DNA from: Nostoc punctiforme PCC 73102
GTDB lineage: Bacteria; Cyanobacteriota; Cyanobacteriia; Cyanobacteriales; Nostocaceae
DNA: 32,000 nucleotides
NCBI RefSeq assembly: GCF_000020025.1
Contig: NC_010628.1
Span: forward strand, 3,030,001 to 3,062,000
Direction of reading: 5' to 3'
Positions 11,185 to 32,000 of the stretch are shown piece after piece (position 1 is the stretch's first letter; the number at the start of each line of letters is the position of its first letter). The notes under the pieces were generated by a model. It was not told where the DNA came from, did no database searches, and worked only from the letters and a program-made list of their open reading frames with translations. Made by a program: the position numbers and the translations under genes.

Positions 11185-11220
11185 ATAGTCAAATGTAGCA
11201 AAATAAATAGGGATAATCAC

Positions 11221-14860: not shown

Positions 14861-14865
14861 CAATC

Positions 14866-14937
14866 CGATAGCGAAGCGGTAGTGAGTCAGACGCTCCTGC
14901 GTCGCTAACGCTGCGCTATCGAGCGTCTTTGATTTCT
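14866..14937 (+). terminator. GC-rich structured element just after the last operon gene (candidate intrinsic terminator or dispersed repeat)
   Basis: GACGCTC (14890-14896) pairs with GAGCGTC (14921-14927) and is followed by TTTGATTTC. An alternative outer pairing joins CGATAGCG (14866-14873) with CGCTATCG (14914-14921). The region is an island of high GC in AT-rich spacer DNA. Confidence 0.4.
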
Positions 14938-14958
14938 AAACTTATTTGTGTAGGAGGC

Positions 14959-15035
14959 AATAGGTAATAGGCAATAGGTAATAGGTAATAGGTAATAGGT
15001 AATAGGCAAGAAGTAATAGGCAATAGTCAATAAGG
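14959..15035. repeat. Heptamer tandem array AATAGG(T/C), about 11 units (STRR-like)
   Basis: I read off the units directly: aataggt, aataggc, aataggt x4, aataggc, aagaagt, aataggc, aatagtc, aataagg. Confidence 0.9.
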
Positions 15036-15196
15036 CTCTTTGAGTTGTACTGATTTTTTTCAGAAATCAAATATGACTCCTATATATAATCAGTAGGTGG
15101 GCTTGACAAATTATCTATTTTATTTCTTTTGCTTGTTTGCAATATTGAGTCATTCAAGCTTAATTACATCAATCATCAAAAATCCAATCTAAATTT

Positions 15197-16600
15197 ATGG
15201 AATCTCGAACAGAAAATATTATTACGTTTAATACATATTTGCAAATTTTGAAGCGCCGTAGGTTGTCTTTTATAGTAATATTTTTTCCAGCATTGCTAAT
15301 TTCATTGCTACCTTTGTTATTAAGACAACCTAATTATATGGCAGAGGGAAAGCTGCTGTTCCACAAAACAAATATAACTTCTTCCCTAACGGGAGTAGGA
15401 ACAGAAATAAACAAGCTAGAATCAGTATCTCAGGATCAAACTAATCCTTTAAATACAGAAGCAGAAGTTATACGCTCTATACCTATAGCGCAAAAAGCTA
15501 TAAACAAACTCAACTTGAAGGACGACAAAGGGGAGCTTATAAAACTCCAGGCTTTTCTTAAAAAATTGACTGTGAAAAATATTGATGGAACTGATATTTT
15601 ATTAGTCTCCTATCAAGATACTAACCCGGAAATTGCAACAGAAGTTGTTAATAAATTGATGGATGCTTATTTAGAATATAATATATCCGCTCAGAGGAAT
15701 CAAACTACGGCTGCGCGCAAATTTTTAGAAAAACAGATGCCGAATGCAGAATTAACTGTTCTAAAAGCAGAAGCCGATATCACAAAGTTTAAAGAAAACT
15801 ATAAGAGTGTTTCCCTGCCAGAAGAAGCAAGTAAGGCAGTAGAAAACATTGCAGACTTACAAAAGAAATTTAGTGAAGCTCAATCAAGAATTGCTGATGT
15901 CGATGCACAGTCTAAAGAAATCCGCGAACAATTGGGTATGAACTCTCGACAGGCAATGATTAAGACTTCCCTTAGCCAGATTTCAGGTGTACAAGATATT
16001 CTTAAAGAAATTCAACAATTAGAGTCGCAACTTACACTCAGGCGAACTGTTGTACAAGACACCCATCCGCAAATTCTAGATTTAGAAGACAAGTTAAAGT
16101 CTTTAAACGAGCTACTGCAACAGCGCATAAAAAAAGTTACAGGAACGAATAAACTAAAACTAAATCAAAACTATGAATTAGGAGAGTTACAACAGCAACT
16201 CTCAGCGAAGCTTATAGAATTAGAGTCAACCCGTCTAGGTTTAGAAAGCCAATCTGCTGCTTTATCTAACTTACAATCTAGCTACAAACAACGTCTGAGT
16301 TATCTTCCGAGATTAGAACAACAACAACACCAGTTAGAACGTAAAGCAAAAGTCGCACAATCTACTTATTTACTTTTGCAACAAAAGCTAGAAGAAAGCC
16401 GTTTAGCGGAAAATCAAAACTTAGTTAATGCAAGTATCCTATCCGAAGCTCAAGTTCCTCAACAGCCTATTTCTTCTCCTTTTATGCTTGTGAGTGCTTC
16501 TTTACTGGCTATCCTGGCTACTTTAGTGGCTATCTTTATTTTGGAAGCAACAGATAAATCAATTAAGACTGTTGATGAAACCAAAAGTTGTTGGGATTGA
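15197..16600 (+). CDS. Wzz/GumC-type polysaccharide co-polymerase (chain-length determinant) lacking the tyrosine-kinase domain
   Basis: It is 467 aa. An N-terminal Wzz region with a TM helix (FNTYLQILKRRRLSFIVIFFPALLISLL) is followed by a long coiled-coil. The C-terminal segment is NASILSEAQVPQQPISSPF plus a second TM helix (LVSASLLAILATLVAIFILEATDKSIKTVDE). The ORF stops just where fused Wzc-type proteins continue into the kinase. Confidence 0.85.
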   Translation: MESRTENIITFNTYLQILKRRRLSFIVIFFPALLISLLPLLLRQPNYMAEGKLLFHKTNITSSLTGVGTEINKLESVSQDQTNPLNTEAEVIRSIPIAQKAINKLNLKDDKGELIKLQAFLKKLTVKNIDGTDILLVSYQDTNPEIATEVVNKLMDAYLEYNISAQRNQTTAARKFLEKQMPNAELTVLKAEADITKFKENYKSVSLPEEASKAVENIADLQKKFSEAQSRIADVDAQSKEIREQLGMNSRQAMIKTSLSQISGVQDILKEIQQLESQLTLRRTVVQDTHPQILDLEDKLKSLNELLQQRIKKVTGTNKLKLNQNYELGELQQQLSAKLIELESTRLGLESQSAALSNLQSSYKQRLSYLPRLEQQQHQLERKAKVAQSTYLLLQQKLEESRLAENQNLVNASILSEAQVPQQPISSPFMLVSASLLAILATLVAIFILEATDKSIKTVDETKSCWD

Positions 16601-16808: not shown

Positions 16809-19151
16809 CTAGGTAGAAAATTCCAACCGATGTGCAGTACCATTATCCACAAAACTCTGTTCACCAACGCCAACTAATTCCACAATGGTTTCACGCGTTA
16901 TAGGTGAGAACTCACCTTCTCTGGCTGCAATCTCAACAATGGTTCTTTGCTGCTCGGAATAAACATGGTAAGTTGTGGTGCAAAAGGCTCCTGTTTTGTA
17001 CTCAAAAGTATGACCATCATCTTCATAAAGGGTAAACTCACCAACACCCTTCCAGATCCGCAGTCTCATTTGGTTTATGGGATGTTCATCTACATATTGC
17101 ATTACTGGCGCGATCGCAATAATTGAGCCAGCACGAACATATAACGGCATTTTCTCCAGTGGTGCATAAGCAAGAATGTGAATGGGTCCTATAAAAGTTT
17201 CCCCACTCCACCAATCATACCAACAACCTTCAGGCAAGTAGACGGCACGATGTTCAACGCCTGGACGGTAAATTGGTGCCGCTAGTAAGGAGGGGCCAAG
17301 CATTACTTGATCGGCAAGAGAAAAGGTTTTTGGGTCATTGGGGAAATCATACAGAAGTGGGCGAAGAATTGGTGCGCCAGTAGTTGCAGCCAACCAAAAA
17401 AGAGTGTAAATGTAAGGTAGTAGTTGATAACGGAGTTCAATGTACTCGCGGCAAATTTTTTCGATGCGATCGCCAAATACCCAAGGCTCATGCTGTGCAG
17501 TAGTTAATGCTGAATGCCCACGCATCAAGGGGTAAAGCATTCCTAGCTGCATCCAACGCGCATATAGTTCAGCCGTAGCATTCCCCGCAAACCCCCCAAT
17601 ATCACTACCAACAAAGGGAATACCCGATAGTCCCAGGTTACAAAGCATTGGTATGGACATTTCCAAGTGTTCCCACAGAGATTGATTGTCTCCTGTCCAG
17701 ATAGCTGACCAGCGTTGAATGCCAGCATATCCAGAGCGTGTCAATATAAAAGAGCGTTCAGTCGGACGAGATATTTTCGCTCCTTGATAAGATGCCTGTG
17801 CCATCATTAGCCCATAAAGATTGTGAACTTCCTTATGGGTGGTTATTTCCTCAATTGGCCCCTGTGGTGCATCAAGGGGAAAAGAAATCTTGTCACCAGG
17901 ATCGCCGAATGGACGGTCATCCAGTGCGGGTTCATTCATGTCGTTCCAGATGCCGGCAACACCAATATCAGTCAAACTTTTTTGCCAATTTCCCCACCAA
18001 TCTCTAACTTCAGGACGTAGGTAATCAGGAAAGACAGCCTTGTCTGGCCAAACATAGCCGTGGAACAATTGACCATTAGTTTTTCGGATGAAATAGTTAT
18101 TCTTTAATCCCTCGTCAAAGACTTTGTAATCTGCTTCTGGCTCGTATTTGACTCCCGGATCAACAATCGTCACTACTTTAAATCCATCTTGCTTAAGATT
18201 TCCGATTAATTTTTGAGGATCAGCAAATCGCTTGGGACTCCAGGTAAAAACCCTATAGCTATTCATATAGTCAATATCTAAATGAATAACATCACAGGGA
18301 ATGCGACGCTGACGAAATTCATCAGCTAGTTTGCGTACTATATCTTGTGACTCATAACTCCAGCGACATTGGTGATAACCTAATGACCATCGAGGTGGCA
18401 AAGGCATCCGTCCAGTTAGCTGGGTGTAAGTCTGGATAATTTTCGCAGGTTCAGGCCCATAAATAATGTAGTAATCTAGTTCGCTCCCCTGAGTTTCCAT
18501 CTGCCAGACTCCAGGCTGTTGTGCGCCCAGATCAAATCGGCTCCAATAAGTAGTATTAAAAAAAAGTCCGTATCCCAATCCAGGACGCAAGGCGATGAAA
18601 AAGGGAATTGCCTGATACATACTGTCTGTCATGATGCCGTAATCGATCGCATCTGATGCCCAGTTGGTTTTCACTTTTGATCGCTGATCTAGTAAACCAG
18701 TCGGTTCACCAAAACCATAGAAATGTTCGTCAGATTCAATCCGTTTCCACCCAGCAACCTCCCCTGTCCGCCACCCCATCCCTAAGTCTGTATCTTGTGC
18801 AAAAGGCTGTCCTACTGAGTCAAAACACTGGATACGACATGGATCGCGGGACACGACAATAGACAATTGCTCAGTTTCAATTTCTATAGTCTCTGCTGTT
18901 TCCCGCACTTCAAACGGCACAGTAGGCCATTCTTCATCCGCAAGTGCTACTGCCCACGATCGCCTAGAGAGAAATTCACCACTTGGGGCCATCCGTACCC
19001 GAATTAAGTTTGGTGCTAGCACACTAACTATTAGACAGGGGTCGCCGCACAGCAAGAGGATATGGCGCTCATTCTGTTGTATTGCTTGTACTGCTCCAAG
19101 GATTGACCAAGGCGCTTCAGTTGTGTGCAGTTGTCCAAAGTATTGTGGCAT
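16809..19151 (-). CDS. GH31-family alpha-glucosidase
   Basis: It carries GIWNDMNEPA (the nucleophile Asp region), IWTGDNQSLWEHL and FVGSDIGGFAG, and has the size typical of GH31. The maximal ORF starts at TTG 19211. ATG 19151 (MPQYFGQLH...), preceded by the purine-rich tcaggaatt, is the more likely start. Confidence 0.92.
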   Translation of the reverse strand: MPQYFGQLHTTEAPWSILGAVQAIQQNERHILLLCGDPCLIVSVLAPNLIRVRMAPSGEFLSRRSWAVALADEEWPTVPFEVRETAETIEIETEQLSIVVSRDPCRIQCFDSVGQPFAQDTDLGMGWRTGEVAGWKRIESDEHFYGFGEPTGLLDQRSKVKTNWASDAIDYGIMTDSMYQAIPFFIALRPGLGYGLFFNTTYWSRFDLGAQQPGVWQMETQGSELDYYIIYGPEPAKIIQTYTQLTGRMPLPPRWSLGYHQCRWSYESQDIVRKLADEFRQRRIPCDVIHLDIDYMNSYRVFTWSPKRFADPQKLIGNLKQDGFKVVTIVDPGVKYEPEADYKVFDEGLKNNYFIRKTNGQLFHGYVWPDKAVFPDYLRPEVRDWWGNWQKSLTDIGVAGIWNDMNEPALDDRPFGDPGDKISFPLDAPQGPIEEITTHKEVHNLYGLMMAQASYQGAKISRPTERSFILTRSGYAGIQRWSAIWTGDNQSLWEHLEMSIPMLCNLGLSGIPFVGSDIGGFAGNATAELYARWMQLGMLYPLMRGHSALTTAQHEPWVFGDRIEKICREYIELRYQLLPYIYTLFWLAATTGAPILRPLLYDFPNDPKTFSLADQVMLGPSLLAAPIYRPGVEHRAVYLPEGCWYDWWSGETFIGPIHILAYAPLEKMPLYVRAGSIIAIAPVMQYVDEHPINQMRLRIWKGVGEFTLYEDDGHTFEYKTGAFCTTTYHVYSEQQRTIVEIAAREGEFSPITRETIVELVGVGEQSFVDNGTAHRLEFST

Positions 19152-19294
19152 AATTCCTGATTTTAAGATAATTATTTTACCCAATTGAGATTCACATAAA
19201 CTACTACTCAAAAGCGTGTATCTTTAGGCATAGCGTATATTGAACTTTATTTATCACTGTCCTAGGCAATCACAGCCGCGCTTTGGAGCCAAAA

Positions 19295-19326: not shown

Positions 19327-19499
19327 CGTTCCCCAGAGAAACAATGGTGTTACTCATTCCCTCCAAGAGCGATCGCTTTCTATGCCCCACGATTACCCGT
19401 TTCTATGTGAATACGAAATTCTAATCAAAGTCTCAAGGCGGATGAAGCTATGAGCTAAATTTGTTACTGTTGGCTAAAAATTACAATTGAGTAAATTTG

Positions 19500-20411
19500 A
19501 TGAGTGGTCGAACAGTGCGCTCCTATGCTTTCTTATCAATTGGGGCAGCAATTGTTACTATTGCCTTGAAGTTTGGGGCTTATCTGCTAACCGGATCGGT
19601 AGGGTTGCTTTCGGATGCGATTGAATCGTGTGTGAATCTGGCGGCAGCATTGGTGGCACTGTGGGCAGTAACTTATGCTGCCAAACCAGCCGATGCAGAA
19701 CACACCTTTGGGCATTCTAAAGCAGAATATTTTTCCAGTGGAGCCGAAGGTGCGTTGATTATAGTTGCAGCTATTAGTATTGCAGTTGAAGCTTGGGGAA
19801 GGTTATTGCATCCAGAAGCGATCGCTCAAGTGGGATTGGGGTTGGCTCTATCAATGTTGGCAACAGCAGTCAACGGTGTAGTTGCTTTTGTGTTGCTAAA
19901 AGCGGGACGACGTTTGCGTTCGATTACACTGCGAGCTGATGCTCACCACCTATTTACTGATGTCTGGACTTCGGGTGGTGTGATAGTGGGAATCTTTTTG
20001 GTTCAGGTAACAGGTTGGCTAGTACTTGACCCAATCATCGCTTTGTTGGTAGCAGTCAATATTGTCTGGACAGGATTTCGTTTGCTACGAGAAAGCTTTT
20101 TTGGATTGCTGGATACTGCCTTGCCTATTGAAGAAATAGAGACAATCCGGGTTATTCTCAGTAAATATGAACGCCAAGGTATCCAGTTCCATGCAATGCG
20201 TTCTCGGATTGCTGGAACACGTCGGTTTATTTCCTTTCATGTTTTAGTGCCTGGAGTATGGACAGTGCGGCAAGGACATGATTTATGCGAAGCAATTGAG
20301 TTGAGCATCATTCAAGCACTGCCAAAAAGCAGCATCATAACTCATCTCGAACCATTAGAAGACCCTGTATCCTGGGACGATCAGGAATTGGAGCGGACTA
20401 GTAACCAATGA
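19500..20411 (+). CDS. Cation diffusion facilitator (CDF) family divalent-metal efflux transporter
   Basis: It has six hydrophobic helices, HTFGHSKAEYF after TM2 and HHLFTDVWTS (an H-x3-D metal site in TM5). A C-terminal cytoplasmic domain follows. TTG 19497 immediately precedes ATG 19500. Confidence 0.92.
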   Translation: MSGRTVRSYAFLSIGAAIVTIALKFGAYLLTGSVGLLSDAIESCVNLAAALVALWAVTYAAKPADAEHTFGHSKAEYFSSGAEGALIIVAAISIAVEAWGRLLHPEAIAQVGLGLALSMLATAVNGVVAFVLLKAGRRLRSITLRADAHHLFTDVWTSGGVIVGIFLVQVTGWLVLDPIIALLVAVNIVWTGFRLLRESFFGLLDTALPIEEIETIRVILSKYERQGIQFHAMRSRIAGTRRFISFHVLVPGVWTVRQGHDLCEAIELSIIQALPKSSIITHLEPLEDPVSWDDQELERTSNQ

Positions 20412-20660
20412 CAAGAATCACTTGCAAGAACTGTTCAAGAGGCTAAATAATAGGTGAAGCATCTTCTAAACACAAAACAGCCACCTCTGCTCCATTCAAC
20501 GATCCAACATCAGCAGTGTTTTTTGAATAAGTGTATGTATGAGGCGGTAGCCCCTAGGGACGAAAAAAAGCAAGTACCTCTGGAAATCTGCATAATTCTT
20601 TACCTAATTACACAGAAGTTACAGTTAGTAACCTCTGTGTAGTTAGCAATTTTAAAAATT

Positions 20661-20770
20661 TTAACTATCTCCTTAATTGTCTTAACTGTCTTAACTGTCC
20701 GCTTAACTGTCTTAACTGTCTTAATTGTCTTAACCATCCGCTTAACTGTCCGCTTAACTGTCTTAACTGC
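20661..20770. repeat. Nonamer tandem array CTTAACTGT (about 11 units) with interspersed CCG triplets
   Basis: The array reads cttaattgt, cttaactgt x2, ccg, cttaactgt x2, cttaattgt, cttaaccat, ccg, cttaactgt, ccg, cttaactgt, cttaactgc. Confidence 0.9.
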
Positions 20771-21378
20771 TATTGCATTTTGTAGATAAAGCTGAGATGA
20801 TTTGTAGGCTGAACTTCAGTCTGTTGTTTGAAATGCAGTTATTAAATTGAAAATTAGTCTAATTTAATAAATCTATTGTAGAAATCTATCATAATGAAAG
20901 CTTTGTCCAATATTAGATAGCAGGAATAACCGTAAATATTATCTCATAAGCAATCTCTAATCCATCGCAAAAAACTATAGAGTTCACACCAATCAAAAAT
21001 ATAAAATGCTTGTCATTAATGGGGGCGGTATCAGGGAAATTATACCAGCATAAATAGAAAAGCGAATACTAAAAATTATTTTCAGTTTGTTAGATTTAAT
21101 TGCTAATATTTAAACCGGAGGTGTTCTTACAATCAGACTAGTAGAATTTTATTAACCTTAAATAAATCTTATACATTTCCGAGCGCTGAATTATAGTGTT
21201 ACAAATCTTCCCAAAAATATCTTTAGTATAGGAATGAGATATTTTACGAGCTATCATTTAAACACATAGTTGCTTTAATAGAGAATATGTTATTCTCATG
21301 AAAATATTTTTCTGGATTAGATACTTAAGTAGCGTTTTCATCAGCATCCAAATGTAAGGATTTTAGGTAATTATTATA

Positions 21379-21771
21379 ATGGATGACATAGTTAAAAAAC
21401 TTGCTGGTCTGGGTCTTCCTGGTGTAATACTCGTGATTCTAACGGTAACAACAGGGGGTAGTTCTGCTGCTGTTGCAGCTACTCTGACAGCCTTGGGAGG
21501 GCCGTTTGGCATCGTCGGAGGTATAGCTCTGCTAGGTCTAGTAACTGTGGTAGGAGATACTGTAACGGGATATGGAATTGAAGCCATTCTTAAAGGCATC
21601 TATACAGAACGTAGCAAAACTGAATCTGTGATATTTCTCTTCAAAGAAATTCAAGGTTTACCGATTACAGAGGAGCTAAAACTCAAACTGAAAAATCAAC
21701 TTAGTGTAGCAATGATTACTGATACTAAAGAGGTTCGATATCTAAAAAAAATTGAAATCATCGAGAAATAG
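21379..21771 (+). CDS. Small Gly/Ala-rich two-helix membrane protein, paralogue A (unknown family)
   Basis: It is 130 aa: MDDIVKKLAGLGLPG, then two hydrophobic helices with small-residue spacing (GGPFGIVGGIALLGLVTVVG), then YTERSKTESV...EELKLKLKN and a charged tail. It is 92/130 identical to the 24973-25365 ORF (my hand alignment). The conservation is in this frame. Confidence 0.75.
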   Translation: MDDIVKKLAGLGLPGVILVILTVTTGGSSAAVAATLTALGGPFGIVGGIALLGLVTVVGDTVTGYGIEAILKGIYTERSKTESVIFLFKEIQGLPITEELKLKLKNQLSVAMITDTKEVRYLKKIEIIEK

Positions 21772-22001
21772 TTTTTATAAAAACTGTACGTTGTTCAACC
21801 TAAATTTTGAGCGCTTTAATTCAGGTGAGTTCCCTCTAAATCACTCGATAAATTGGGAAACTTTGATTCCAGTCACCTACCTTTTTAGGGGGATAGAGGA
21901 AATAAATTAAGTGTCTAAAATCACAGATAAACACTTTTAAAACAACCTTTGAGGCTTTCTGAGTGAGTATGTAAACTACGAGGTATTGGAGTTGTGACCA
22001 A

Positions 22002-23093
22002 ATGGAATCTTTAAGTAAGGCATCTTATCGAATTGTTGCCATTCCTGGAGAAGGGATTGGGCCAGAAGTTGTAGAAGCTTCCTTAAAAATTCTGCAACAC
22101 GTTGCTAAAATTCAAGGATTTACCTTACAGGTAGACTATGGTTGGCTCGGCGCAACTGCCTTTGAACAACTGGGTAGTTACTTCCCTCAAGCCACTACCG
22201 AACTGTGCGATGGAGCCGATGGGATTGTATTTGGTGCAGTTAGTCAAGGCGGATTGCTGGAACTCCGAAAACACTTCGACTTTTTTTGCAATCTTCGTCC
22301 AATCCGTAGCGTTAACAGCCTTCTGCATAAATCTAGTCTTCGACCAGAGAAAATTCAAGGACTTGATATTCTCATCGTTCGAGAACTGGTGAGTGGAATC
22401 TATTTTGGGCCGTCTGGACGCTCCTCAGATGAACGAGGAAATTATGGATACCATACGATGCGCTATTACGATGAAGAAATTCGTCGGATTGCTCGTAAAG
22501 CTTTAGAGCAAGCCCAATACCGTCGAGGATTACTCACCGTAGCTCACAAAGAAAACGCCTTACCTCATTTGCATTGGACTCGTCTAGTTCAAGAAGAAGC
22601 CACAAAGTTTCCCAACGTTATTGTTGAACCAATGCTGGTGGATAACTTAGCCATGCAAATGGTTCTGAATCCCCAACGGTTTGATGTAATTTTGGCGAGT
22701 AATTTGTTTGGAGATATTCTCAGCGATATTGGCGGTGCATTAGTTGGCTCAATTGGCTTATTAGGATCGGCAAGTCTTAACGCTAATGGATTTGGTTTGT
22801 ACGAGGCCATTCACGGTACAGCGCCAGATATTGCAGGCTTAGGAATTGCTAATCCCCTCGGAACCTTGGGAGCTTGTGTTTTAATGCTTCAGCAATGGGG
22901 AGAAGTGCAGGCTGCCCAACAGATTATTGCAGCGCAAGACCGAATTTTAGCTAAGGGATACCGAACAGCTGATTTGTTTACCCAAGGCGAAGAAATTTTA
23001 GTTAATACTGCAACCTTAGTTGACCTTTTACTTGAAGAACTTTCAGTTGTGCAACATTCTCAATTAGGAGTACTTCATGAGTCACGAAAATAA
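22002..23093 (+). CDS. hphB: 3-isopropylmalate dehydrogenase homologue; candidate homo-amino-acid pathway dehydrogenase (HphB-like)
   Basis: It is 363 aa. Motifs are IVAIPGEGIGPEVV, CNLRP, ILIVRELVSGIYFG, SNLFGDILSDIGG and YEAIHGTAPDIAG, the beta-decarboxylating dehydrogenase signature. It overlaps the isomerase gene by 17 nt and lies upstream of an NRPS. The symbol is assigned by context, not proven. Confidence 0.85.
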   Translation: MESLSKASYRIVAIPGEGIGPEVVEASLKILQHVAKIQGFTLQVDYGWLGATAFEQLGSYFPQATTELCDGADGIVFGAVSQGGLLELRKHFDFFCNLRPIRSVNSLLHKSSLRPEKIQGLDILIVRELVSGIYFGPSGRSSDERGNYGYHTMRYYDEEIRRIARKALEQAQYRRGLLTVAHKENALPHLHWTRLVQEEATKFPNVIVEPMLVDNLAMQMVLNPQRFDVILASNLFGDILSDIGGALVGSIGLLGSASLNANGFGLYEAIHGTAPDIAGLGIANPLGTLGACVLMLQQWGEVQAAQQIIAAQDRILAKGYRTADLFTQGEEILVNTATLVDLLLEELSVVQHSQLGVLHESRK

Positions 23094-24786
23094 CGTTTTG
23101 CACCTTGGTGATGATATCAATACTGATGATATTATTCCTGCTAATCGAGCTACAAATGATGACCTAGATAGTTTAAAACATTATGCTTTAGAGCATGTTA
23201 TTGGAGCAGGTGAACTGCTAAAATATGATGTGATTGAAGCAGGAGAAAATTTCGGCTGTGGTTCCAGTCGAGAAATTGCTCCCATTGCCCTACAAGCTGC
23301 TGGAATTACAAAGATTCGGGCGCGATCGTTCGCCGAGATTTTTTATCGTAATAGCATCAATATTGGACTTTCTCTAGAAATTCTAGGGGAGAAACAGGAG
23401 AATCCTGTAGTTGATGCGATCGCAGCAGCAGGTGGGTTAATGTCTTTTAATCAGCTGCGTCGTCAGGGTCAGATTAGCATTCCTGGGAGCCTCACTCCGC
23501 CAAGACCTATGACTTTAGTAGAAAAACTCTTGGGCCTTGCCTCTAGAAATTCCTACGTCCAGCCTGGAGAAGTGGTTTTTGCTCAGGTCGATTTAGCATT
23601 ATCCCATGATGCTGTGGCCGGGCCTGTAGCTCAAACATTCTATAAACAGTATGGAGAAGGAACAAAGTTATGGGACTCCCAAAAGGTGGTCTTAGTAGCA
23701 GATCACTTCATCCAAATCAACGACATCCGTGCTGATGACAAAGCATATCTGATGTACGAACAGATGATTGAATTTGCTAAATTCCAAGGATGCCACTTAT
23801 TTGATGTGGTTTCCCCAGGTGAAGCAACAGGCATCTGTCACGTTTTACTACCAGAAAAAGGGTTTGTCCGACCAGGGATGATAATTGCCGGTACAGATTC
23901 CCATACCTGCACCTACGGAGCATTGGGAGCCTTTTCCACAGGCGTGGGAACGACAGATATGGCTAATATTTATGCCACAGGAGATATGTGGATTCGTATT
24001 CCTCCAACCCTAGTATTTGAGTTGTCTGGAACCTTACCTCCTAAAATCAGTGCCAAAGATATTATCCTGTTTATTTTGGGACAAATCGGCTGTGCTGGCG
24101 CTACTAGTAAGGTAATGGAGTTTAGAGGGTCAATCCTGGCACAACTGCCCTTTGATGAACGGTTGACTTTAGCCAATATGGCCGTGGAGTGTGGTGCAAT
24201 CTGTGGGTTGATTGTTCCTGATGAAGTAACCCGTGAATATCTAAAAAACCGAGTTTCAGAAGAATTTCAAGAGATTATCGGCGATGCTGATGCTGAGTAC
24301 GAAAGGGTTTATCAATTTGACCTCAGCAGTTTAGAACCACAAGTTGCCCGTCCCCCGAAACCAGATCGGGTAGTTGCCATTAGTCAGTTAGAAAACATTC
24401 CGATTACTAAAGCCTTTATTGGCTCTTGTACTGGAGGAAAACTCTATGACTTAGCTCAAGCAGCCGAAGTTTTAAAGGGTCGCCAACTGGCAGACGGTGT
24501 AAACTTGTTTATTGTACCTGCAACTATTGAAATTAGAGAACAAGCTCAAGAATTGGGCTATATCGACATTTTTGAACAAGCAGGGGCACAAATTCTCAAG
24601 ACAGGTTGTGGGGCTTGTATCAATTCTGGATTTGGGGTTTTAGCGAAAGAAGAAACAGGTATTTATGCAACCAATCGCAATTTTAAAGGACGCAGTGGCG
24701 ATCCAACGGGCAAAAATTATTTAGCCTCACCCAGAACAGTAGCTATCTCTGCTGTAAATGGAAAAATTAGCGATCGCTTTGATTAA
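23077..24786 (+). CDS. hphCD: Fused isopropylmalate/homoaconitate-isomerase-like protein with the small (LeuD-like) domain N-terminal to the large (LeuC-like) domain (HphCD-like)
   Basis: Residues 1 to about 125 carry LeuD motifs: GDDINTDDIIPA, GENFGCGSSREIAPIAL and RSFAEIFYRNSINIGL. From the internal Met at 23509 (MTLVEKLL) the LeuC/aconitase motifs follow: ADHFIQ, GTDSHTC, GSCTGGK, GCGACIN (Fe-S Cys ligands) and NRNFKGRSG. Confidence 0.88.
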   Translation: MSHENNVLHLGDDINTDDIIPANRATNDDLDSLKHYALEHVIGAGELLKYDVIEAGENFGCGSSREIAPIALQAAGITKIRARSFAEIFYRNSINIGLSLEILGEKQENPVVDAIAAAGGLMSFNQLRRQGQISIPGSLTPPRPMTLVEKLLGLASRNSYVQPGEVVFAQVDLALSHDAVAGPVAQTFYKQYGEGTKLWDSQKVVLVADHFIQINDIRADDKAYLMYEQMIEFAKFQGCHLFDVVSPGEATGICHVLLPEKGFVRPGMIIAGTDSHTCTYGALGAFSTGVGTTDMANIYATGDMWIRIPPTLVFELSGTLPPKISAKDIILFILGQIGCAGATSKVMEFRGSILAQLPFDERLTLANMAVECGAICGLIVPDEVTREYLKNRVSEEFQEIIGDADAEYERVYQFDLSSLEPQVARPPKPDRVVAISQLENIPITKAFIGSCTGGKLYDLAQAAEVLKGRQLADGVNLFIVPATIEIREQAQELGYIDIFEQAGAQILKTGCGACINSGFGVLAKEETGIYATNRNFKGRSGDPTGKNYLASPRTVAISAVNGKISDRFD

Positions 24787-24972
24787 AGACTGAGCTATCA
24801 GATGGGGTTGAATTAGAGATAAAACTCAAAAAATATTAACCCAATCTAAACGTGAATTACTCTTATTTAGCTTAGTCTAGGTTTTGAGAGAGGTTTCTTG
24901 ATTTACAAAGACTCCATGCTCTTCCCCTTAGTAATGTCTTAACCAAGAAAAAAAAGATTTTAGGTAATAAAA

Positions 24973-25365
24973 ATGGACGAAATCGCTAAAAAACTTGCTG
25001 GTCTGGGTCTTCCTGGGATAATTCTCGTGATTTTAACAGTTACATCAGCAGGTAGTAATGCTGCTATTGTTGCTGCCCTCACAGCAGTAGGAGGCCCATT
25101 TGGTATCGTTGGAGGTATAGGTTTACTTGGTCTAATCACGGTTCTAGGTGATACTGTCGCGGGATATGGAATTGAGGCTGTTCTCAAGGCCGTCTATACA
25201 GAACGGAGTAAAACCGAATCTGTAAGATATCTCCTGAAAGAAATAAAAGATTTACCCATTTCAGAGGAGCTAAAACTCAAACTGAAAAATCACCTTAGCC
25301 CAGAAACTGTTACTGAGGTGGAAGATGTTCAAGCTCCAAAAACAATTGAAATTGTCGAGGAATAA
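24973..25365 (+). CDS. Small Gly/Ala-rich two-helix membrane protein, paralogue B (unknown family)
   Basis: It is 130 aa, the same length and architecture as 21379-21771. The 13-nt upstream motif gattttaggtaat is also shared (21359-21371 and 24956-24968). Confidence 0.75.
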   Translation: MDEIAKKLAGLGLPGIILVILTVTSAGSNAAIVAALTAVGGPFGIVGGIGLLGLITVLGDTVAGYGIEAVLKAVYTERSKTESVRYLLKEIKDLPISEELKLKLKNHLSPETVTEVEDVQAPKTIEIVEE

Positions 25366-25376
25366 TTTCACTGTTA

Positions 25377-25501
25377 CATTCGGTGACATTTAAAATCAAA
25401 TGGCACAAATACTATTTGGGATTTTAAATTGGGGATTTGGAGTTATTAAAAGCTGACTGGATTTTGCTTTAAGATATCCATTCGGATTCTATTTAAAATC
25501 A
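25377..25501 (+). promoter_or_regulatory. Imperfect direct repeat (two copies) in the NRPS upstream region
   Basis: cattcggtgacatttaaaatca (25377-25398) and cattcggattctatttaaaatca (25479-25501) share cattcgg plus atttaaaatca. They lie about 102 nt apart. Each contains a TAAAAT -10-like hexamer. Confidence 0.3.
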
Positions 25502-25743
25502 GTATCAGTTAACCGATCGCACCAAATTTCTGTGAGCAAAGAAAATGGCCTCTGAGCCCAATCTCATCGATTAAACCCTCAAAGGCCTATTTTTTGAGAT
25601 ATCTATGCAATAAATCTGTTACCTAGCAGAAGCCCAAAAATCGCTCTAAAGGTCTGTGAAAGAAATAACTGTAAAGCCTGGGCAAGGATATAGCAAAAAG
25701 TTAGAAAAATTGTAAAATCTTCACTTTCTGTAGCAAATTTATT

Positions 25744-28700
25744 ATGGAAGAAACTATCATTAACTCTATTCAAAATATTAATAATTTGTCTGCCTTAACT
25801 GAGCAGGAGCGACATAAAATATTGGTGGAATGGAATCATACAACGGTAGCTTATCCAAAGCACTTATGTATACATCAGTTATTTGAAGCACAAGTAGAAA
25901 AAACTCCAGACAGTATCGCTGTTGTGTTCAAGGAGGAACAACTAACTTATCAGGAGTTGAACCACCGAGCCAACAAAATAGCACATTATCTGCGTTTGCT
26001 GGGTGTAGATACAGAGGTGCTGGTAGGCATTTGCGTCGAGCGATCGCTAGAAATGATTGTAGGAATCTTGAGCATCCTTAAGGCGGGTGGAGCTTATGTG
26101 CCACTAGATCCAACGTATCCCAAAGAGCGTTTAAGCTTCATGCTCTCAGATTCGCAAGTGCAGGTGGTGTTAACTCAAGAAAAATTCGTTGACGATTTGG
26201 CTGCAAGCGGAGCGAAGTTGGTTTGTCTGGATGATAAGAAATCTTTTCACCAAGAGAGCAACGAGAATCCTAGTAGTGGGGTTGCACCAGAAAATCTAGC
26301 TTATGTAATTTATACATCAGGGTCAACAGGAACACCCAAAGGTGTGCTGATTCAACATCAAGGCGTGTGTAATCTAGCTCAGGCACAAGTGAAGCTGTTT
26401 AATGTACAGCAAAACAGTCGTGTTCTCCAGTTTGCTTCTTTCAGCTTTGATGCTTCAGTTTGGGAAATTTTCATGGCTCTGTGTTCAGGAGCTAGCCTTT
26501 ACATTGGAACTCAGGATTCCTTGCGCCCAGGAATAGATTTAATGCGACTGTTGCAAGAGCAATCAATAACTCACGTAACACTTCCACCCACAGCACTAGC
26601 AGCATTACCAAAAGAGGAATTGCCAAACTTACAAACCCTCATCGTCGCCGGAGAAGCTTGTAATCCTAAGTTGATAGCTGAATGGTCAAAAGGGCGGCGC
26701 TTTTTTAATGCTTATGGGCCAACAGAATCAACAATCTGTGCCACAGTAGCAGAATATACTGGTGACACTCAACTGACCATTGGTCGAGCGATCGCTAACA
26801 CTCAAATATATATTCTCGCTCAAGATCGGCAACCAGTTCCTATTGGTACTCCTGGCGAATTGTATATTGGTGGCGATGGCTTGGCTAGAGGCTACTTGAA
26901 CCGCCCAGAGCTAACCAAGGAAAAATTTATTCCTCATCCCTTTGAGAAAGCAGAAGGGAGTAGATTATACAAGACTGGTGACTTAGCTCGCTTCTTACCA
27001 GATGGCAACATTGAATTTTTGGGGCGAGTCGATCATCAGGTGAAGATTCGCGGGTTCCGTATTGAATTAGGAGAAATTGAGGCGCTTTTGAGTCAACATT
27101 CGGATGTACAGCAGGCAGTAGTAATCGCCCGTGAAGATATCCCTGGCGATCAGCGTCTTGTCGCCTATATTGTGCTTAAGCAAAAACTTGATGTGAGCGT
27201 CACTAGCCTCAAACGCTTTCTCCAAGAAAAACTGCCTAACTACATGGTGCCAGCAGTCTTTGTCATTCTAGACTCCTTGCCCCTTACTCCCAATGGTAAA
27301 GTCGATCGTCAGAATCTTCCAGTTTGCGATCGCTCACGCCCCGATCTCGAAGAAACCTTTGTCGCCCCTCGTAACTCCACTGAAGCAACACTAGCAAGCA
27401 TTTGGGCTGAGTTATTGGGACTTGAGCAGATAGGAATCGATGACAATTTTTTCAATTTGGGCGGTCATTCCCTGATAGCAGCTCAAATACTTTCCCGCAT
27501 CCGCGAGGGTTTCCAAGTCGAGTTATTCTTTCACCATATTTTTGCCAACCCTACCATAGCGGGTCTAGCTGGGCTAATTGAACAACACAGCCACCTCAAA
27601 CAACAGTTGCAACGTCCTGCCATACAACCAATTTCACGGTCAGGATACTTGCCAGCTTCCTTTGCTCAAGAGCGAGTATATTTCATCCAAGAAGTAGCTC
27701 CTGAAAGTGCTGCCTATCAAGCTCAGGTAACTCTGCGATTGACTGGAAAACTAGATGTGGCAGCATTAGAGCAGTGCCTCAGTGAGATTGTCCGACGGCA
27801 TGAAATCTTCCGAACGACTTTTCCGGCAATAGATGGACGGTTATTTCAAGTAATCCACCCAGCCGAAGCAATCAGGTTCACATCGAGCGGAGCCGAGATG
27901 TTCACAGTTATAGACCTCCAGACATTTCCTGAGTCTGAGCAAGAAGCAGAAAGTCAGCGCCTATTTGACGCAGAGGTGCAAAAGCCCTTCTACTTAAATC
28001 AACTGCCATTAGTCAGGTGGTTATTGTTGAAGTTGAGCGACCAAGACCATCTTTTGATCCACATCGAACATCACATGGTTCATGATGGCTGGTCTTTCAA
28101 CAACGTGTTCTTGAATGAGTTTGTGGAACTTTATCAAGCCTTCTGTTTGGGTAATCTTTCCCCACTGCCAGAATTAACATTCCAGTTTGCAGATTATGCC
28201 CATTGGCAGCGAGAGTGGGTTAAAAGCCAGGAAGCCGAAGCACAATTAGCTTATTGGCAGCAAAAGTTATCCGGTAGTCCGCCCCTTTTGGAATTACCAT
28301 CAGACCGCCCGCGCCCAGCAGAACAAACTTACAACGGCGCTCAAGTCAGGGTAGAGTTGCCCATTAGCTTGTGCGAATCTTTGAGGGTTCTCAGTCGTCA
28401 AGAAGGAATCACCTTATTCATGACGACGCTAGCAACTTTTTTAGTAATATTGCACCGATACACCAGACAGGACGATCTCTGTGTAGGAACGGCTGTTGCC
28501 AATCGGCGGATGCGCGAGACAGAAAAATTAATTGGCATGATCGTCAATAATTTGGTTTTACGCACTGATTTATCTGGAAATCCCACGTTTCGGGAGTTAC
28601 TGAATCGAGTCCGCCAAGTCAGTCTGGAAGCCTTTGCTAACGAAGATTTACCCTTCGATAAGGTCGTGGAAGTTCTCAAGCCAATCCGGAACTTGAGTTA

Positions 28701-31700
28701 CAATCCCCTGTTTCAAGTGATGTTCAGCTTCCATGATTCTCCCCAGCCAAACTTAACTCTCCCAGGCTTGAACATCAGACCAAATGTAGCCCTCAGCAAC
28801 AAATCAACAAAGTTTGATCTTGATGTCGTTCTGATTCCGCATCATGGCGCAGATAAGGGAATTACTATGATTTGGGAATACAACACCGACTTATTCGACA
28901 CTGCCACAATCCAGCAGATGGCAGAGCAGTATCAAATTTTGCTAGAGGGGATTGTTGTTAACCCAGAGCAGCGAGTTTCTGAATTACCACTGTTAACGCA
29001 GACTCATCAGCAGTTGCTCATGGAGTGGAATCAGACTCACAGGGAGTATGCCGCTAAAGATTGTATTCACGATTTATTTGCGGCTCAGGTGGAGTTAACG
29101 CCCGATGCTGTAGCTATTCAGCAAGAAGGTCAACAGTTAACTTACCGCCAATTGAGCGATCGCGCCAATCAATTAGCACACTATCTGCAAAGTTTAGGAG
29201 TCAAACCAGAAACCCTGGTCGGTATCTGCGTTGAGCGTTCCTTGGAAATGATTGTTGGCTTACTTGGAATTCTTAAAGCGGGAGGTGCTTACGTTCCCCT
29301 CGATCCAGCTTATCCCCAAGAGCGACTGGCTGATATTCTCGCAGATACGCAACTAAAAATTCTGCTGACTCAAGAAAGATTCCAGGACAAATTACCAGAT
29401 TATGCCGGAAAAACGATCTGTTTAGATACAGACTGGGAAATAATTGCTCAACACAGTACAGCCAATCCCATTAGCGAAGTTCAGTCCCATAACCTTGCTT
29501 ACATTATTTACACCTCTGGTTCTACAGGTAAACCAAAAGGGGTGATGATTGAACATCGGTCATTGATGAATTTTGTCATGACCGCAATGCATGAATATGG
29601 AATTAATGCAAGCGATAATATTCTGCAATTTGCGTCAATCTGTTTTGATGCATCAGTTGAAGAAATCTTACCTTGTCTTTCGGTCGGTGCAACATTGGTA
29701 CTGCGAACTGAGCAGATGTTGCACTCCAGCGATGAATTTTGGCGGTGTTGCCGAGAATGGCAATTAACTGTTTTGGATCTTCCCACAGCTTACTGGCATG
29801 AATTAGTAGCGGAACTTACCTCTGAAGATATCCGAATTCCCGAAAGTCTCAGAATGGTGATTATTGGAGGAGAAGAAGCTCAACTGGAAAGAGTGAAACG
29901 CTGGCACAGTAGTATTGCTCACCTCCCCAATCTACCCCAATTACTTAATAGTTACGGGCCAACGGAAGCAACGGTTATAGCGACCTTAGAGCGCTTAACC
30001 CCAGCAGCCACCTCTGTTAGCATTGGACGACCCATCAGCAATGCTCAAGTTCATATTCTGGATCAATATCTGCAACCAGTGCCTATAGGAGTTCCTGGAG
30101 AAATGCACATTGGTGGGGCAGGATTAGCCAGAGGGTATTGGCAACGTCCTGAACTTACGGCTGAGAAATTTATCCAAAGTCCAAAATTTGATCGTCTCTA
30201 TAAAACTGGGGATTTAGCAAGATTTTGCCCAGATGGCAACCTAGAATATCTTGGTCGAGTTGACGATCAGGTGAAAATTCGCGGCTTCCGCGTCGAATTG
30301 GGAGAAATCGAAACGGTGCTGAGACAACACACACAGGTGTTTCAAGCTTTGGTCATTGCTCGTGAAGACATTCCCGGACAAAAGCGCCTTGTGGCTTATG
30401 TTGTTCTGCACCATCCGCAACCAACCACCAATGAATTGCGCCAGTTCCTCAAACAGAAACTACCGAACTACATGATTCCGGCGGCGTTTGTGCTACTGGA
30501 AACGCTACCGATGACACCTAACCGCAAGGTAGATTACCGCGCTCTCCCAGCCCCCGACTTTTCTCGGAGCGCAGAAGATAGCTTTGTTGCACCCCAAACC
30601 CTTACAGAAGAAAGATTAGCGGCGATTTGGTCGGAAATTTTAAGACTCAAGCAAGTCAGCATCCACGATAACTTCTTTGAGCTGGGCGGCGACTCTATCC
30701 TCAGCATTCAGGTAATTTCCCGCGCCAATCAAGCGGGTATCCAAATTGCCCCCAAACAATTATTTCAGTACCAAACCATTGCTGAGTTAGCTGCCGTGGC
30801 AGGAATTACTCGCTCTGTCAAAGCCGAACAAGGATTAGTAACTGGCAAGGTGGCGCTAACACCCATCCAACAGTGGTTTTTCGAGCAGAAATTGCCCGAA
30901 CCTGATTACTTTAACCAGTCAGCTCTGCTAGAAGTGCCGCCAGACTTGCAACCAGAGCTATTGCAGCAAGTCGTACAAAAATTGCTAGTGCATCACGATG
31001 CTTTGCGTCTGCGGTTTGTGCAGGAAGGGGAAAACTGGCTGCAAATTAACGGCGCTACCCAGGAATCTGTACCACTGAGCATCTTTGATTTATCGCACCT
31101 TTCGCTAGCAGAACAGCAAACAGCGATGAAAGCTGCGGATGCGGAACTCCAAGCTAGTTTGAATTTATCTATCAGAGCGATCGCTACGCCCGCCACAGGC
31201 ATCGCACGAGTGGTGTTGTTTCGGTTGGGCAATGATCAACCTGGTCGATTACTGTTCATCATCCATCACTTAGCAGTAGATGGAATCTCCTGGCGGATTT
31301 TGCTCGAAGATTTAGCTACAGCTTATCAGCAAATTAGCCGTGGCGAAGCTATTAAATTACCACCTAAAACTACTTCCTTTCAATATTGGAGCGATCGCCT
31401 GACAGAATACGCCCAAAAAGATGCTGTCAGAGAGTTGGATTACTGGCTAAGTCAATCTAATATTCAAGTTACAGCTTTGCCACTAGACTATCCTTCATTT
31501 AAAGAAAATAATATCGTAGCCTCAACCGCTTCTGTGTCCCTTTCTTTAACTGAAGAACAAACCCGCGCCCTCTTGCAGGATGTACCCTCTGCCTACAACA
31601 CTCAAATTAATGATGTGCTGTTGACTGCCCTAGTGCAAAGCTTTGCCCAATGGACGGGAGAACGTTCTCTGCTAGTCGATCTAGAGGGACATGGACGGGA

Positions 31701-32000
31701 AGACTTGTTTGAAGATGTGGATTTGTCGCGGACTGTAGGCTGGTTTACCACCTTATTCCCCGTTCATTTAAAGCTAGAAGAAGTTGACCATCCAGGAGAG
31801 GTTTTAAAGTCAGTTAAAGAACAACTGCGGCGCATCCCCAACCGGGGTATAAGCTATGGTGTGTTGCGATATTTGCAGCAGGATGAAACAATACGCACGA
31901 AACTACAAGCGCTACCCCAAGCACAGGCAAGTTTTAACTATCTTGGTCAATTCGATCGGGTGCTTAAGGCATCTGCTGTATTGGGTTTGGCTCAAGAATT
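25744..32000 (+). CDS. Non-ribosomal peptide synthetase, 3'-truncated by the window; modules A-T / C-A-T-E (anabaenopeptin-synthetase AptA/ApnA-like layout)
   Basis: It is absent from the ORF track because no stop occurs before the window end. ATG 25744 opens a frame that stays open to 32000; I checked this by translating at 25744, 26281, 28060, 29461 and 31261. Core motifs present include LTYQELN, LKAGGAYVPLD, YTSGSTGTPKG, FDASVWE, NAYGPTE, GELYIGG, YKTGD, GRVDHQVKIRGFRIELGEIE and NGKVDR. Carrier, condensation and epimerisation motifs are also present (see the domain entries). Confidence 0.96.
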   Translation, partial: MEETIINSIQNINNLSALTEQERHKILVEWNHTTVAYPKHLCIHQLFEAQVEKTPDSIAVVFKEEQLTYQELNHRANKIAHYLRLLGVDTEVLVGICVERSLEMIVGILSILKAGGAYVPLDPTYPKERLSFMLSDSQVQVVLTQEKFVDDLAASGAKLVCLDDKKSFHQESNENPSSGVAPENLAYVIYTSGSTGTPKGVLIQHQGVCNLAQAQVKLFNVQQNSRVLQFASFSFDASVWEIFMALCSGASLYIGTQDSLRPGIDLMRLLQEQSITHVTLPPTALAALPKEELPNLQTLIVAGEACNPKLIAEWSKGRRFFNAYGPTESTICATVAEYTGDTQLTIGRAIANTQIYILAQDRQPVPIGTPGELYIGGDGLARGYLNRPELTKEKFIPHPFEKAEGSRLYKTGDLARFLPDGNIEFLGRVDHQVKIRGFRIELGEIEALLSQHSDVQQAVVIAREDIPGDQRLVAYIVLKQKLDVSVTSLKRFLQEKLPNYMVPAVFVILDSLPLTPNGKVDRQNLPVCDRSRPDLEETFVAPRNSTEATLASIWAELLGLEQIGIDDNFFNLGGHSLIAAQILSRIREGFQVELFFHHIFANPTIAGLAGLIEQHSHLKQQLQRPAIQPISRSGYLPASFAQERVYFIQEVAPESAAYQAQVTLRLTGKLDVAALEQCLSEIVRRHEIFRTTFPAIDGRLFQVIHPAEAIRFTSSGAEMFTVIDLQTFPESEQEAESQRLFDAEVQKPFYLNQLPLVRWLLLKLSDQDHLLIHIEHHMVHDGWSFNNVFLNEFVELYQAFCLGNLSPLPELTFQFADYAHWQREWVKSQEAEAQLAYWQQKLSGSPPLLELPSDRPRPAEQTYNGAQVRVELPISLCESLRVLSRQEGITLFMTTLATFLVILHRYTRQDDLCVGTAVANRRMRETEKLIGMIVNNLVLRTDLSGNPTFRELLNRVRQVSLEAFANEDLPFDKVVEVLKPIRNLSYNPLFQVMFSFHDSPQPNLTLPGLNIRPNVALSNKSTKFDLDVVLIPHHGADKGITMIWEYNTDLFDTATIQQMAEQYQILLEGIVVNPEQRVSELPLLTQTHQQLLMEWNQTHREYAAKDCIHDLFAAQVELTPDAVAIQQEGQQLTYRQLSDRANQLAHYLQSLGVKPETLVGICVERSLEMIVGLLGILKAGGAYVPLDPAYPQERLADILADTQLKILLTQERFQDKLPDYAGKTICLDTDWEIIAQHSTANPISEVQSHNLAYIIYTSGSTGKPKGVMIEHRSLMNFVMTAMHEYGINASDNILQFASICFDASVEEILPCLSVGATLVLRTEQMLHSSDEFWRCCREWQLTVLDLPTAYWHELVAELTSEDIRIPESLRMVIIGGEEAQLERVKRWHSSIAHLPNLPQLLNSYGPTEATVIATLERLTPAATSVSIGRPISNAQVHILDQYLQPVPIGVPGEMHIGGAGLARGYWQRPELTAEKFIQSPKFDRLYKTGDLARFCPDGNLEYLGRVDDQVKIRGFRVELGEIETVLRQHTQVFQALVIAREDIPGQKRLVAYVVLHHPQPTTNELRQFLKQKLPNYMIPAAFVLLETLPMTPNRKVDYRALPAPDFSRSAEDSFVAPQTLTEERLAAIWSEILRLKQVSIHDNFFELGGDSILSIQVISRANQAGIQIAPKQLFQYQTIAELAAVAGITRSVKAEQGLVTGKVALTPIQQWFFEQKLPEPDYFNQSALLEVPPDLQPELLQQVVQKLLVHHDALRLRFVQEGENWLQINGATQESVPLSIFDLSHLSLAEQQTAMKAADAELQASLNLSIRAIATPATGIARVVLFRLGNDQPGRLLFIIHHLAVDGISWRILLEDLATAYQQISRGEAIKLPPKTTSFQYWSDRLTEYAQKDAVRELDYWLSQSNIQVTALPLDYPSFKENNIVASTASVSLSLTEEQTRALLQDVPSAYNTQINDVLLTALVQSFAQWTGERSLLVDLEGHGREDLFEDVDLSRTVGWFTTLFPVHLKLEEVDHPGEVLKSVKEQLRRIPNRGISYGVLRYLQQDETIRTKLQALPQAQASFNYLGQFDRVLKASAVLGLAQE
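25850..27320 (+). other. NRPS adenylation domain 1 (starter module; predicted aromatic, Phe-like substrate). Approximate borders
   Basis: Motifs A1-A10 are present. The hand-extracted specificity positions read D A W T I A A I C K, with the A10 Lys codon at 27298-27300. Confidence 0.85.
27365..27590 (+). other. NRPS carrier (T/PCP) domain 1. Approximate borders
   Basis: It carries FFNLGGHSLIAAQ, with the phosphopantetheine Ser codon at 27469-27471. Confidence 0.85.
27625..28960 (+). other. NRPS condensation domain. Approximate borders
   Basis: It carries SFAQERVYFIQE (C1), RHEIFRTTF (C2) and HHMVHDG (28069-28089, the C3 active site). Confidence 0.85.
29045..30545 (+). other. NRPS adenylation domain 2 (predicted basic substrate, Lys-like). 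Approximate borders
   Basis: It carries LTYRQLS, LKAGGAYVPLD, YTSGSTGKPKG, FDASVEE, NSYGPTE and PNRKVDY, with the A10 Lys codon at 30526-30528. The specificity positions read D A E D I G S V I K. Confidence 0.85.
30590..30800 (+). other. NRPS carrier (T/PCP) domain 2, of the type that feeds an E domain. Approximate borders
   Basis: It carries FFELGGDSILSIQ, with the Ser codon at 30694-30696. The GGDSI variant is characteristic of carrier domains upstream of epimerases. Confidence 0.85.
30830..32000 (+). other. NRPS epimerisation domain (partial)
   Basis: It carries LTPIQQWFF, IIHHLAVDGISW (HH at 31264-31269), LEGHGRED, DLSRTVGWFTTLFPV, PNRGISYGVLRYL and FNYLGQFD. Confidence 0.88.

Follow-up and report, generated by a model that had tools for sequence, protein, structure and literature searches.

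What do two closely similar small genes, both annotated in the databases as 'hypothetical protein', contribute to the peptide gene cluster in which they stand? The question is raised by 32,000 nucleotides (nt) of DNA from the cyanobacterium Nostoc punctiforme PCC 73102 (contig NC_010628.1, positions 3,030,001 to 3,062,000), referred to here as the window. On its + strand lie two open reading frames (ORFs) of 130 codons each, at 21379-21771 (ORF1) and 24973-25365 (ORF2), the second just ahead of a gene for a nonribosomal peptide synthetase (NRPS). In what follows we show that, in the Nostocales, the paralogues of this family are specific to the type of peptide cluster and occupy fixed positions. 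The family itself, one of small predicted membrane hairpins, is undescribed and new to the databases. The genes concerned are these (aa, amino acids):

21379..21771, + strand: ORF1, a 130-aa protein predicted to form a membrane hairpin (ACC81017 / WP_012409011); an extra, lineage-specific paralogue.
22002..23093, + strand: hphB-like homologue of isopropylmalate dehydrogenase (Iso_dh match, Pfam/NCBIfam; naming as in PMC9564503).
23077..24786, + strand: hphCD-like fused small and large aconitase-family dehydratase (Pfam/NCBIfam; naming as in PMC9564503).
24973..25365, + strand: ORF2, a 130-aa protein predicted to form a membrane hairpin (ACC81020 / WP_012409014); the conserved copy 5′ of aptA, clade A below.
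25744..32000, + strand: aptA-like NRPS gene, A-T-C-A-T-E as read from the translation; it runs past the end of the window.

The products of ORF1 and ORF2 align without gaps at 92 of 130 positions (BLASTP, E = 2e-57) and at 84 of the first 108. These figures bear out an earlier account made from the DNA alone (the sequence-only reading), which had described twin 130-aa proteins identical at 85 of 109 positions. The same account had placed hphB-like and hphCD-like genes between the twins and the NRPS start after ORF2. Both placements hold, the start being at 25744, and the order A-T-C-A-T-E is the layout of AptA. At the DNA level the twins are similar (79%) over the initial 300 nt of the ORF, and the similarity extends to about 25 nt of leader.

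Are these real genes? The ratio of non-synonymous to synonymous substitution rates (dN/dS) is 0.13-0.30, measured against orthologues and paralogues, and we therefore conclude that ORF1 and ORF2 are genuine genes under purifying selection. An additional constraint on synonymous sites, hinted at by low dS between Nostoc and Planktothrix, was considered and dropped, since the dS of both ORFs resembles that of the adjacent hphB and hphCD. Antisense open frames of 75-78 codons (21363-21599 and 24960-25187, both − strand) cover the Gly/Ala-rich part of the two small genes and are probably a by-product of its codon composition.

If the genes are real, where do their relatives sit? An initial search returned 367 homologues, whose named members come almost all from heterocyst-forming cyanobacteria or Planktothrix and are all annotated 'hypothetical'. 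For neighbourhoods we used 76 loci from species-representative genomes, together with loci found by exact look-up, and classed 100 gene copies in 85 loci by their neighbours, in categories that overlap. Of the 100 copies, 54 lie at most 1.5 kb upstream of an NRPS gene on the same strand. A gene of about 700 codons for a protein with Laminin_G_3 and patatin phospholipase domains directly adjoins 21 copies, and in 28 more the same patatin gene stands upstream with only hphB-hphCD between. Sixteen are in or beside microviridin clusters; about six have none of these contexts. Close homologues are strongly, though not exclusively, linked to peptide gene clusters.

The sequence-only reading had proposed a role tied to clusters carrying hph or NRPS genes. 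The tie to peptide clusters stands; the exclusivity does not, since copies occur also in microviridin clusters and beside the patatin gene with no NRPS. Some 6% of the close homologues, a Planktothrix copy among them, and most of the distant superfamily described below lie outside peptide clusters, which by the sequence-only reading's own ground for refutation tells partly against it. The order patatin-(hphB-hphCD)-small gene-aptA recurs in about 40 loci of Nostoc, Desmonostoc, Scytonema, Stigonema, Calothrix, Nostochopsis and Sphaerospermopsis. Across genera of Nostocales, both position and orientation beside aptA are fixed, as befits an accessory gene of the apt cluster. The small gene is not discussed in papers on these clusters; that on the apt cluster of N. 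edaphicum passes over the locus tags lying between hphCD and aptA.

How are the copies in different clusters related? A neighbour-joining tree of the 100 proteins, computed without bootstrap or other support values, sorts them by genomic context. Clade A, to which ORF2 belongs, precedes AptA and has the tail ..PKTIEIVEE. Clade B stands ahead of an NRPS of 2950 aa that includes FkbM-methyltransferase and sulfotransferase domains and is the start of an OciA/cyanopeptolin-type assembly line; single loci of this clade precede an AerA-like A-KR-T protein or a polyketide synthase. Clade C, that of ORF1, is found only in the N. punctiforme clade, where in sister strains it is flanked by a cation-efflux gene on one side and the patatin gene on the other. 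Clade D is the copy in microviridin clusters, 137 aa long with the tail ..AVIIQFQWY.

Did the twins of the window arise by duplication on the spot? Over its first 108 residues ORF1 is identical to a clade B protein at 93 positions and to a clade D protein at 89, and so is closer to both than to ORF2; we conclude that the twins did not arise by local duplication. Nor is the retention of two diverged copies in one cluster general: ORF2 alone is the conserved apt copy. How ORF1 came to its present place is seen from sister Nostoc strains, in which a 712-aa Laminin_G_3 and patatin phospholipase is encoded between ORF1 and hphB (21772-22001 of the window compared with L002:4349-6855). The junction left by its loss, which brought ORF1 up against hphB, is the following:

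21810..21831: deletion junction, about 2.3 kb lost, from comparison with sister Nostoc strains.

The microviridin loci are genuine, for they contain MdnA precursors with the PFFARFL leader. Their order is two MvdD-type ATP-grasp ligases, the small gene, an ABC transporter (ABC_membrane_2), a GNAT protein, a GUN4-domain protein and a 150-aa protein of no recognised type, with the small gene usually about 47 nt upstream of the transporter gene. We considered the small protein itself as a precursor of a ribosomally synthesised and post-translationally modified peptide (RiPP) of the MdnA type and rejected this, the protein having neither the PFFARFL leader nor the TxKxPSDxE(D/E) core while true MdnA genes are present at other places in these loci. 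A genome-mining paper records 'a GUN4 superfamily protein and a hypothetical protein' of unknown function in microviridin clusters (PMC4558948); the microviridin clusters described in the literature for Microcystis and Planktothrix list no such small gene. In several Nostoc genomes the apt small gene is followed, about 30 kb downstream on the same contig and strand and directly after the apt cluster, by a microviridin cluster (L020, L021, L037 and L044, with L015, L016, L033 and L011). Flanks extended 10 kb at most, and the apt-distal ABC transporter therefore comes into view only in loci with a following microviridin cluster (L020, L037, L044). The arrangement resembles the oci-apn-mvd 'meta-cluster' carried by Planktothrix, in which the published apnA-E cluster comprises five genes, the small gene not among them (PMC5311044).

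In Planktothrix agardhii the homologue instead lies divergently beside a GUN4-domain gene and adjoins Dnd genes, away from any NRPS. The GUN4 protein, in which no known domain covers the first 380 residues, shares 78.6% identity over 557 aa with that of a Nostoc microviridin cluster (L005:8163-9833, − strand, against L020:13147-14868). So high a value between different orders is unusual and suggests that the small gene and the GUN4 gene were transferred together.

To what family do these proteins belong? When both ORFs and distant members were scanned, no family was recognised in Pfam, NCBIfam, PHROG or PADLOC, and a profile search of the PDB returned nothing with E below 0.17; literature searches, including those by locus tag and accession, found no paper on the family. 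The sequence-only reading had not recognised the family either, and in this it was right. It was right, too, that the protein is not MbtH-like: there is no Pfam or NCBIfam match to that soluble, Trp-conserving family of about 70 aa, and the small protein has a hydrophobic hairpin and, in ORF1 and ORF2 alike, no Trp. A match to the PqqD-like/RRE family (PF05402) was found for one member (E = 0.001-0.002), and we take it as chance because 34 of 35 members have none.

A wider superfamily does exist. A profile search of 1.8 billion cluster representatives gave 364 clusters at E ≤ 0.001, and a second search that included distant members gave at least 1497 proteins, from cyanobacteria, Firmicutes, Bacteroidota, Marinimicrobia and Myxococcota. 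Their common part is a core of about 110 aa, which among 112 full-length matches stands alone in 59, has a C-terminal extension in 25 and an N-terminal extension in 28. The C-terminal partners include an Mrr-type nuclease, an AIG1/GIMAP-type GTPase, a nitrilase (CN_hydrolase) and an endonuclease/exonuclease/phosphatase (EEP) domain; the N-terminal ones include helix-turn-helix (HTH) domains of the XRE and MerR types. We infer that the core acts as a tether for cytosolic partners. With so many members, no Pfam entry and fusions to nuclease, GTPase and HTH domains, the superfamily is worth defining as a new domain family.

The anatomy of ORF1 and ORF2 bears out the three-part layout given by the sequence-only reading. 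Residues 1-11 form a short amphipathic N-terminal helix. Residues 12-65, two hydrophobic helices rich in Gly and Ala, are uncharged except for D60, contain 12 Gly and show two hydropathy maxima. Residues 66-110 make up a polar, three-helix domain of about 45 residues rich in invariant positions (Y75, E77, R78, K80, E82, L87, E90, I91, P95, I96, L100 and K101). The last 20 residues are variable, with the ORF2-type ending P(K/R)T(I/V)EIVEE. Within the second hydrophobic helix, G40-x3-G44-x3-G48 is invariant or nearly so in sets of 26 and 74 sequences, and GxxxG begins at residues 40 and 44 in both ORFs. An AlphaFold2 model is all-helical, with a mean predicted local-distance difference test score of 71 from 26 sequences and 74 from 74; residues 60-110 are the most confident and the tail is disordered. 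The superfamily's fusion partners act in the cytoplasm whether they are attached at the C- or the N-terminus, so both ends of the module should be cytosolic and the hydrophobic part between them should be a hairpin. Fusions and hydropathy together point to an N-in/C-in hairpin. The many invariant residues of the cytosolic domain argue for a specific protein partner.

What, then, might the small proteins do? Our tentative answer, possible rather than probable, is that each paralogue is a membrane adaptor dedicated to its cluster; both the adaptor role and the identity of its partner are proposals. The hairpin would anchor the protein in the membrane, where the conserved cytosolic domain and the clade-specific tail would dock a partner at the surface: perhaps the first synthetase, perhaps the ABC transporter or scaffold of the cluster, perhaps the lectin-patatin lipase. 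Assembly of the peptide in the cytosol would thereby be coupled to a site at the membrane. Purifying selection, placement in NRPS and microviridin clusters, tails that follow the cluster type, the cytosolic fusions and the invariant cytosolic residues speak for it. It also fits a published hypothesis on microviridin, in which the ABC transporter MdnE serves the biosynthetic complex as a scaffold at the membrane (review, PMC7823629). Transporters of the MdnE/MvdA type resemble the small protein in being a membrane component of a peptide cluster thought to anchor cytosolic enzymes (PMC7823629). The two are nevertheless unrelated, MdnE being a 670-aa ABC protein and the small protein a 130-aa hairpin without ATPase.

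More distant parallels come from short membrane proteins that are encoded beside a larger membrane complex and act on it, such as AcrZ (with AcrB), KdpF and CydX. These are single-helix proteins of 30-50 aa with no conserved cytosolic domain. The small protein has no sequence relationship to them, and an ABC transporter is for it a putative partner only.

A broader version of the adaptor would have a widespread and unrecognised hairpin module tether or control enzymes, and be, in heterocystous cyanobacteria, a dedicated part of the anabaenopeptin, cyanopeptolin-type, aeruginosin/spumigin-type and microviridin pathways, either organising a 'peptide factory' at the membrane or, with the lectin-patatin lipase, triggering regulated release of the peptides from inside the cell. 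We regard this version as doubtful. The subject matters because anabaenopeptins, cyanopeptolins, aeruginosins and microviridins, oligopeptides that cyanobacterial blooms contain in abundance, are poorly understood as to site of production, exit and regulation. A single family holds a fixed place in both non-ribosomal and ribosomal clusters, with a separate paralogue for each type, and is an overlooked candidate for what joins the assembly lines in the cytosol to the membrane. N. punctiforme PCC 73102, which has two copies, is genetically accessible according to PMC9324945.

Several observations weigh against the adaptor. Of 141 confirmed hits the best 80 were retrieved for the census, which favours ORF2-like sequences, and the unit counted is the gene copy, many copies coming from related lichen-associated Nostoc metagenome-assembled genomes and not representing independent events. 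The one Planktothrix homologue looked up is away from any NRPS, and adjacency is therefore not required there. In Nostoc, L042 (small gene at 10001-10414) and L035 share the same flanks, namely phycobilisome-linker-like, HEAT-repeat and PutA-like genes; one has two ATP-grasp genes, the small gene and the ABC transporter gene, while L042 keeps the small gene alone, and intact, so that the small gene outlives the loss of the microviridin genes. Finally, gaps of 98-857 nt separate the small gene from the NRPS gene and a terminator-like stem-loop lies between ORF2 and aptA; co-transcription with aptA is therefore not assured.

Could the small gene be a guest in the peptide clusters and not a part of them? 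It might be a conflict module, for defence or as a toxin, in which a hairpin is combined with an effector enzyme and which is merely co-located with peptide clusters in variable islands. The fused Mrr nuclease, EEP, nitrilase and GTPase domains are typical of conflict-system effectors, and the neighbouring patatin protein matches models of CBASS-type phospholipase effectors (PADLOC, E = 1e-60). Patatin and small gene form a pair without aptA in five loci (L061, L072, L074, L073, L084). The Dnd genes beside the Planktothrix homologue count in the same direction, as does a Sorangium homologue directly upstream of a CTD7-MC3-LmuB operon (Lamassu/ABC-3C-type). In Firmicutes a cassette of 54-, 125- and 117-aa genes that includes the hairpin gene (L087:5759-6731, L092:5758-6731) recurs in two mobile contexts, a Finegoldia prophage, before a 1075-aa tail-module gene, and an element encoding a 2900-aa PBECR-domain protein. 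In two lineages (L094:5001-5798, L096:5001-5804) of a 114-aa cyanobacterial subfamily, whose genes have ordinary neighbourhoods, the hairpin gene abuts or overlaps a downstream gene for a 150-aa protein that contains a D..EVK motif (GRIDILTPSEVIEVK). The product may be a PD-(D/E)xK nuclease, paralleling the hairpin-Mrr fusions, an assignment made from the motif while the similarity is not significant.

Hitch-hiking of this kind would leave unexplained both the clades specific to cluster type and the fixed position and orientation in numerous genera. An effector-like neighbour is lacking in clades B and D, and ORF1 and ORF2 themselves are unmatched in PADLOC, where one distant member was weakly matched through its hydrophobic region (PDC-M09A, E = 5.6e-5). 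The module resembles Lamassu/ABC-3C and other membrane-anchored conflict effectors in being fused to, or adjoining, nuclease, lipase, GTPase and nitrilase domains, and differs from them in that the 130-aa subfamily carries no effector and is fixed in peptide clusters. On balance we think a conflict module rather unlikely.

The patatin gene bears on another explanation. The Laminin_G_3 and patatin gene is conserved upstream of apt clusters across Nostocales, and its presence beside the small gene, or just across hphB-hphCD from it, in 56 of the 100 copies raises the possibility of a release module: a glycine-zipper hairpin would oligomerise, or activate the patatin phospholipase, and so permeabilise the cell to free intracellular protease inhibitors. 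Holins and colicin lysis proteins, small membrane proteins as well, are likewise encoded together with a toxin locus, and the latter activate phospholipase A. The conserved GxxxGxxxG of helix 2 speaks for such a module, as does linkage to peptide clusters and not to primary metabolism. The sequence-only reading had likened the twins to holins and glycine-zipper proteins. Its glycine zipper is real, as a motif and not as a family. No Pfam glycine-zipper family was matched; a weak C19orf12-like match was seen in one superfamily member (E = 0.043), with better ones in a separate C-terminal segment of the GTPase fusions. The likeness to holins finds no statistical support. Among eight family members there was no PHROG match; the sole Pfam trace, Phage_holin_3_6, reached E = 0.25 in 2 of 35 members; the best structural match to a BFVD 'Holin' had E = 3.8 and a template-modelling score of 0.24, and there was none in the PDB. 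Nor is the setting that of a lysis cassette, the neighbours being hph genes, NRPS, patatin or microviridin genes and not an endolysin, and even the Finegoldia prophage homologue lies among tail genes, not lysis genes.

Other points tell against release. The small gene is 5′ of the synthetases with a terminator-like element after it, so that its expression should at least equal theirs, which one would hardly expect of a lytic protein. This peptide-producing strain lacks the patatin gene, and so do clades B and D. For mere pore formation a highly conserved cytosolic domain is not needed, and from holins and colicin lysis proteins the small protein differs also in having no lipobox. We judge a release module quite improbable.

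Does the DNA around the small genes suggest control of the clusters? Two elements flank ORF2:

24925..24972, + strand: leader and ribosome-binding region, ..TTAGTAATGT.TTAACCAA..A(A/G)GATTTTAGGTAAT..ATG, about 45 nt.
25545..25597, + strand: stem-loop between ORF2 and aptA, ATGGCCTCTGAG..CTCAAAGGCC at 25545-25587, then TATTTTTT in this strain.

The leader (..TTAGTAATGTTTTAACCAA..AAGGATTTTAGGTAAT..ATG) is conserved 5′ of the clade A, B and D paralogues; ORF1 has kept only its proximal 25 nt or so (21356-21378). The stem-loop occurs in 27 loci of several genera, 82-314 nt past the stop codon of the small gene. Its arms ATGGCCTCTGAG and CTCAAAGGCC are invariant, its outer stem shows two compensatory changes, and a GCGATCGC site precedes it in most loci. 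Taken alone, the element folds modestly better than shuffled sequences (z = -1.9). These features suggest a terminator or attenuator; being near-palindromic, the element could alternatively be a protein-binding site. In a scan for promoters and terminators neither class rose above shuffled expectation, and an Rfam scan of 20300-26000 gave no match.

A leader common to the paralogues and an attenuator-like element ahead of aptA would suit a membrane sensor or regulator situated in the cluster, whose hairpin would sense a membrane or peptide signal and whose cytosolic domain would control the cluster downstream, possibly through leader and stem-loop. The XRE and MerR fusions of the superfamily resemble membrane-tethered one-component regulators, and the small gene stands at a fixed 5′-end position in several cluster types. 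For N. punctiforme, a joint response of the apt, mvd and nos clusters to chemical mediators has been reported (PMC9324945). Set against this, a DNA-binding domain is absent from the 130-aa proteins, and regulator genes do not consistently adjoin them; the microviridin copy is in mid-cluster beside the transporter gene, not at the 5′ end; and the stem-loop is confined to clade A. A regulator seems to us rather unlikely.

Might the paralogues instead make the producer immune to the peptides it forms? Bacteriocin immunity genes are usually laid out in this way, with one small membrane protein to each toxin cluster, and the family's paralogues are cluster-type-specific. The cluster products are, however, inhibitors of proteases and carboxypeptidases with soluble targets, and not membrane-active. 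The hairpin core is moreover nearly identical across paralogues that accompany chemically unrelated peptides, and orphan copies persist without a cluster. Self-protection is a highly improbable explanation.

The remainder of the window upstream of ORF1 is of a different kind. A long polysaccharide cluster, all of it on one strand, occupies 93-16600 and encodes Polysacc_synt_2, a Wzx-like flippase, Wzy_C, two GT4 glycosyltransferases, a DegT aminotransferase and a GNVR chain-length protein. Next come a GH31 glycosidase gene (16809-19211, − strand) and a cation-efflux transporter gene (19497-20411). The 970-nt gap between the latter and ORF1 contains, at 20642-20770, a run of 9-nt direct repeats (CTTAACTGT and variants), with some 12-nt CCGCTTAACTGT units among them.

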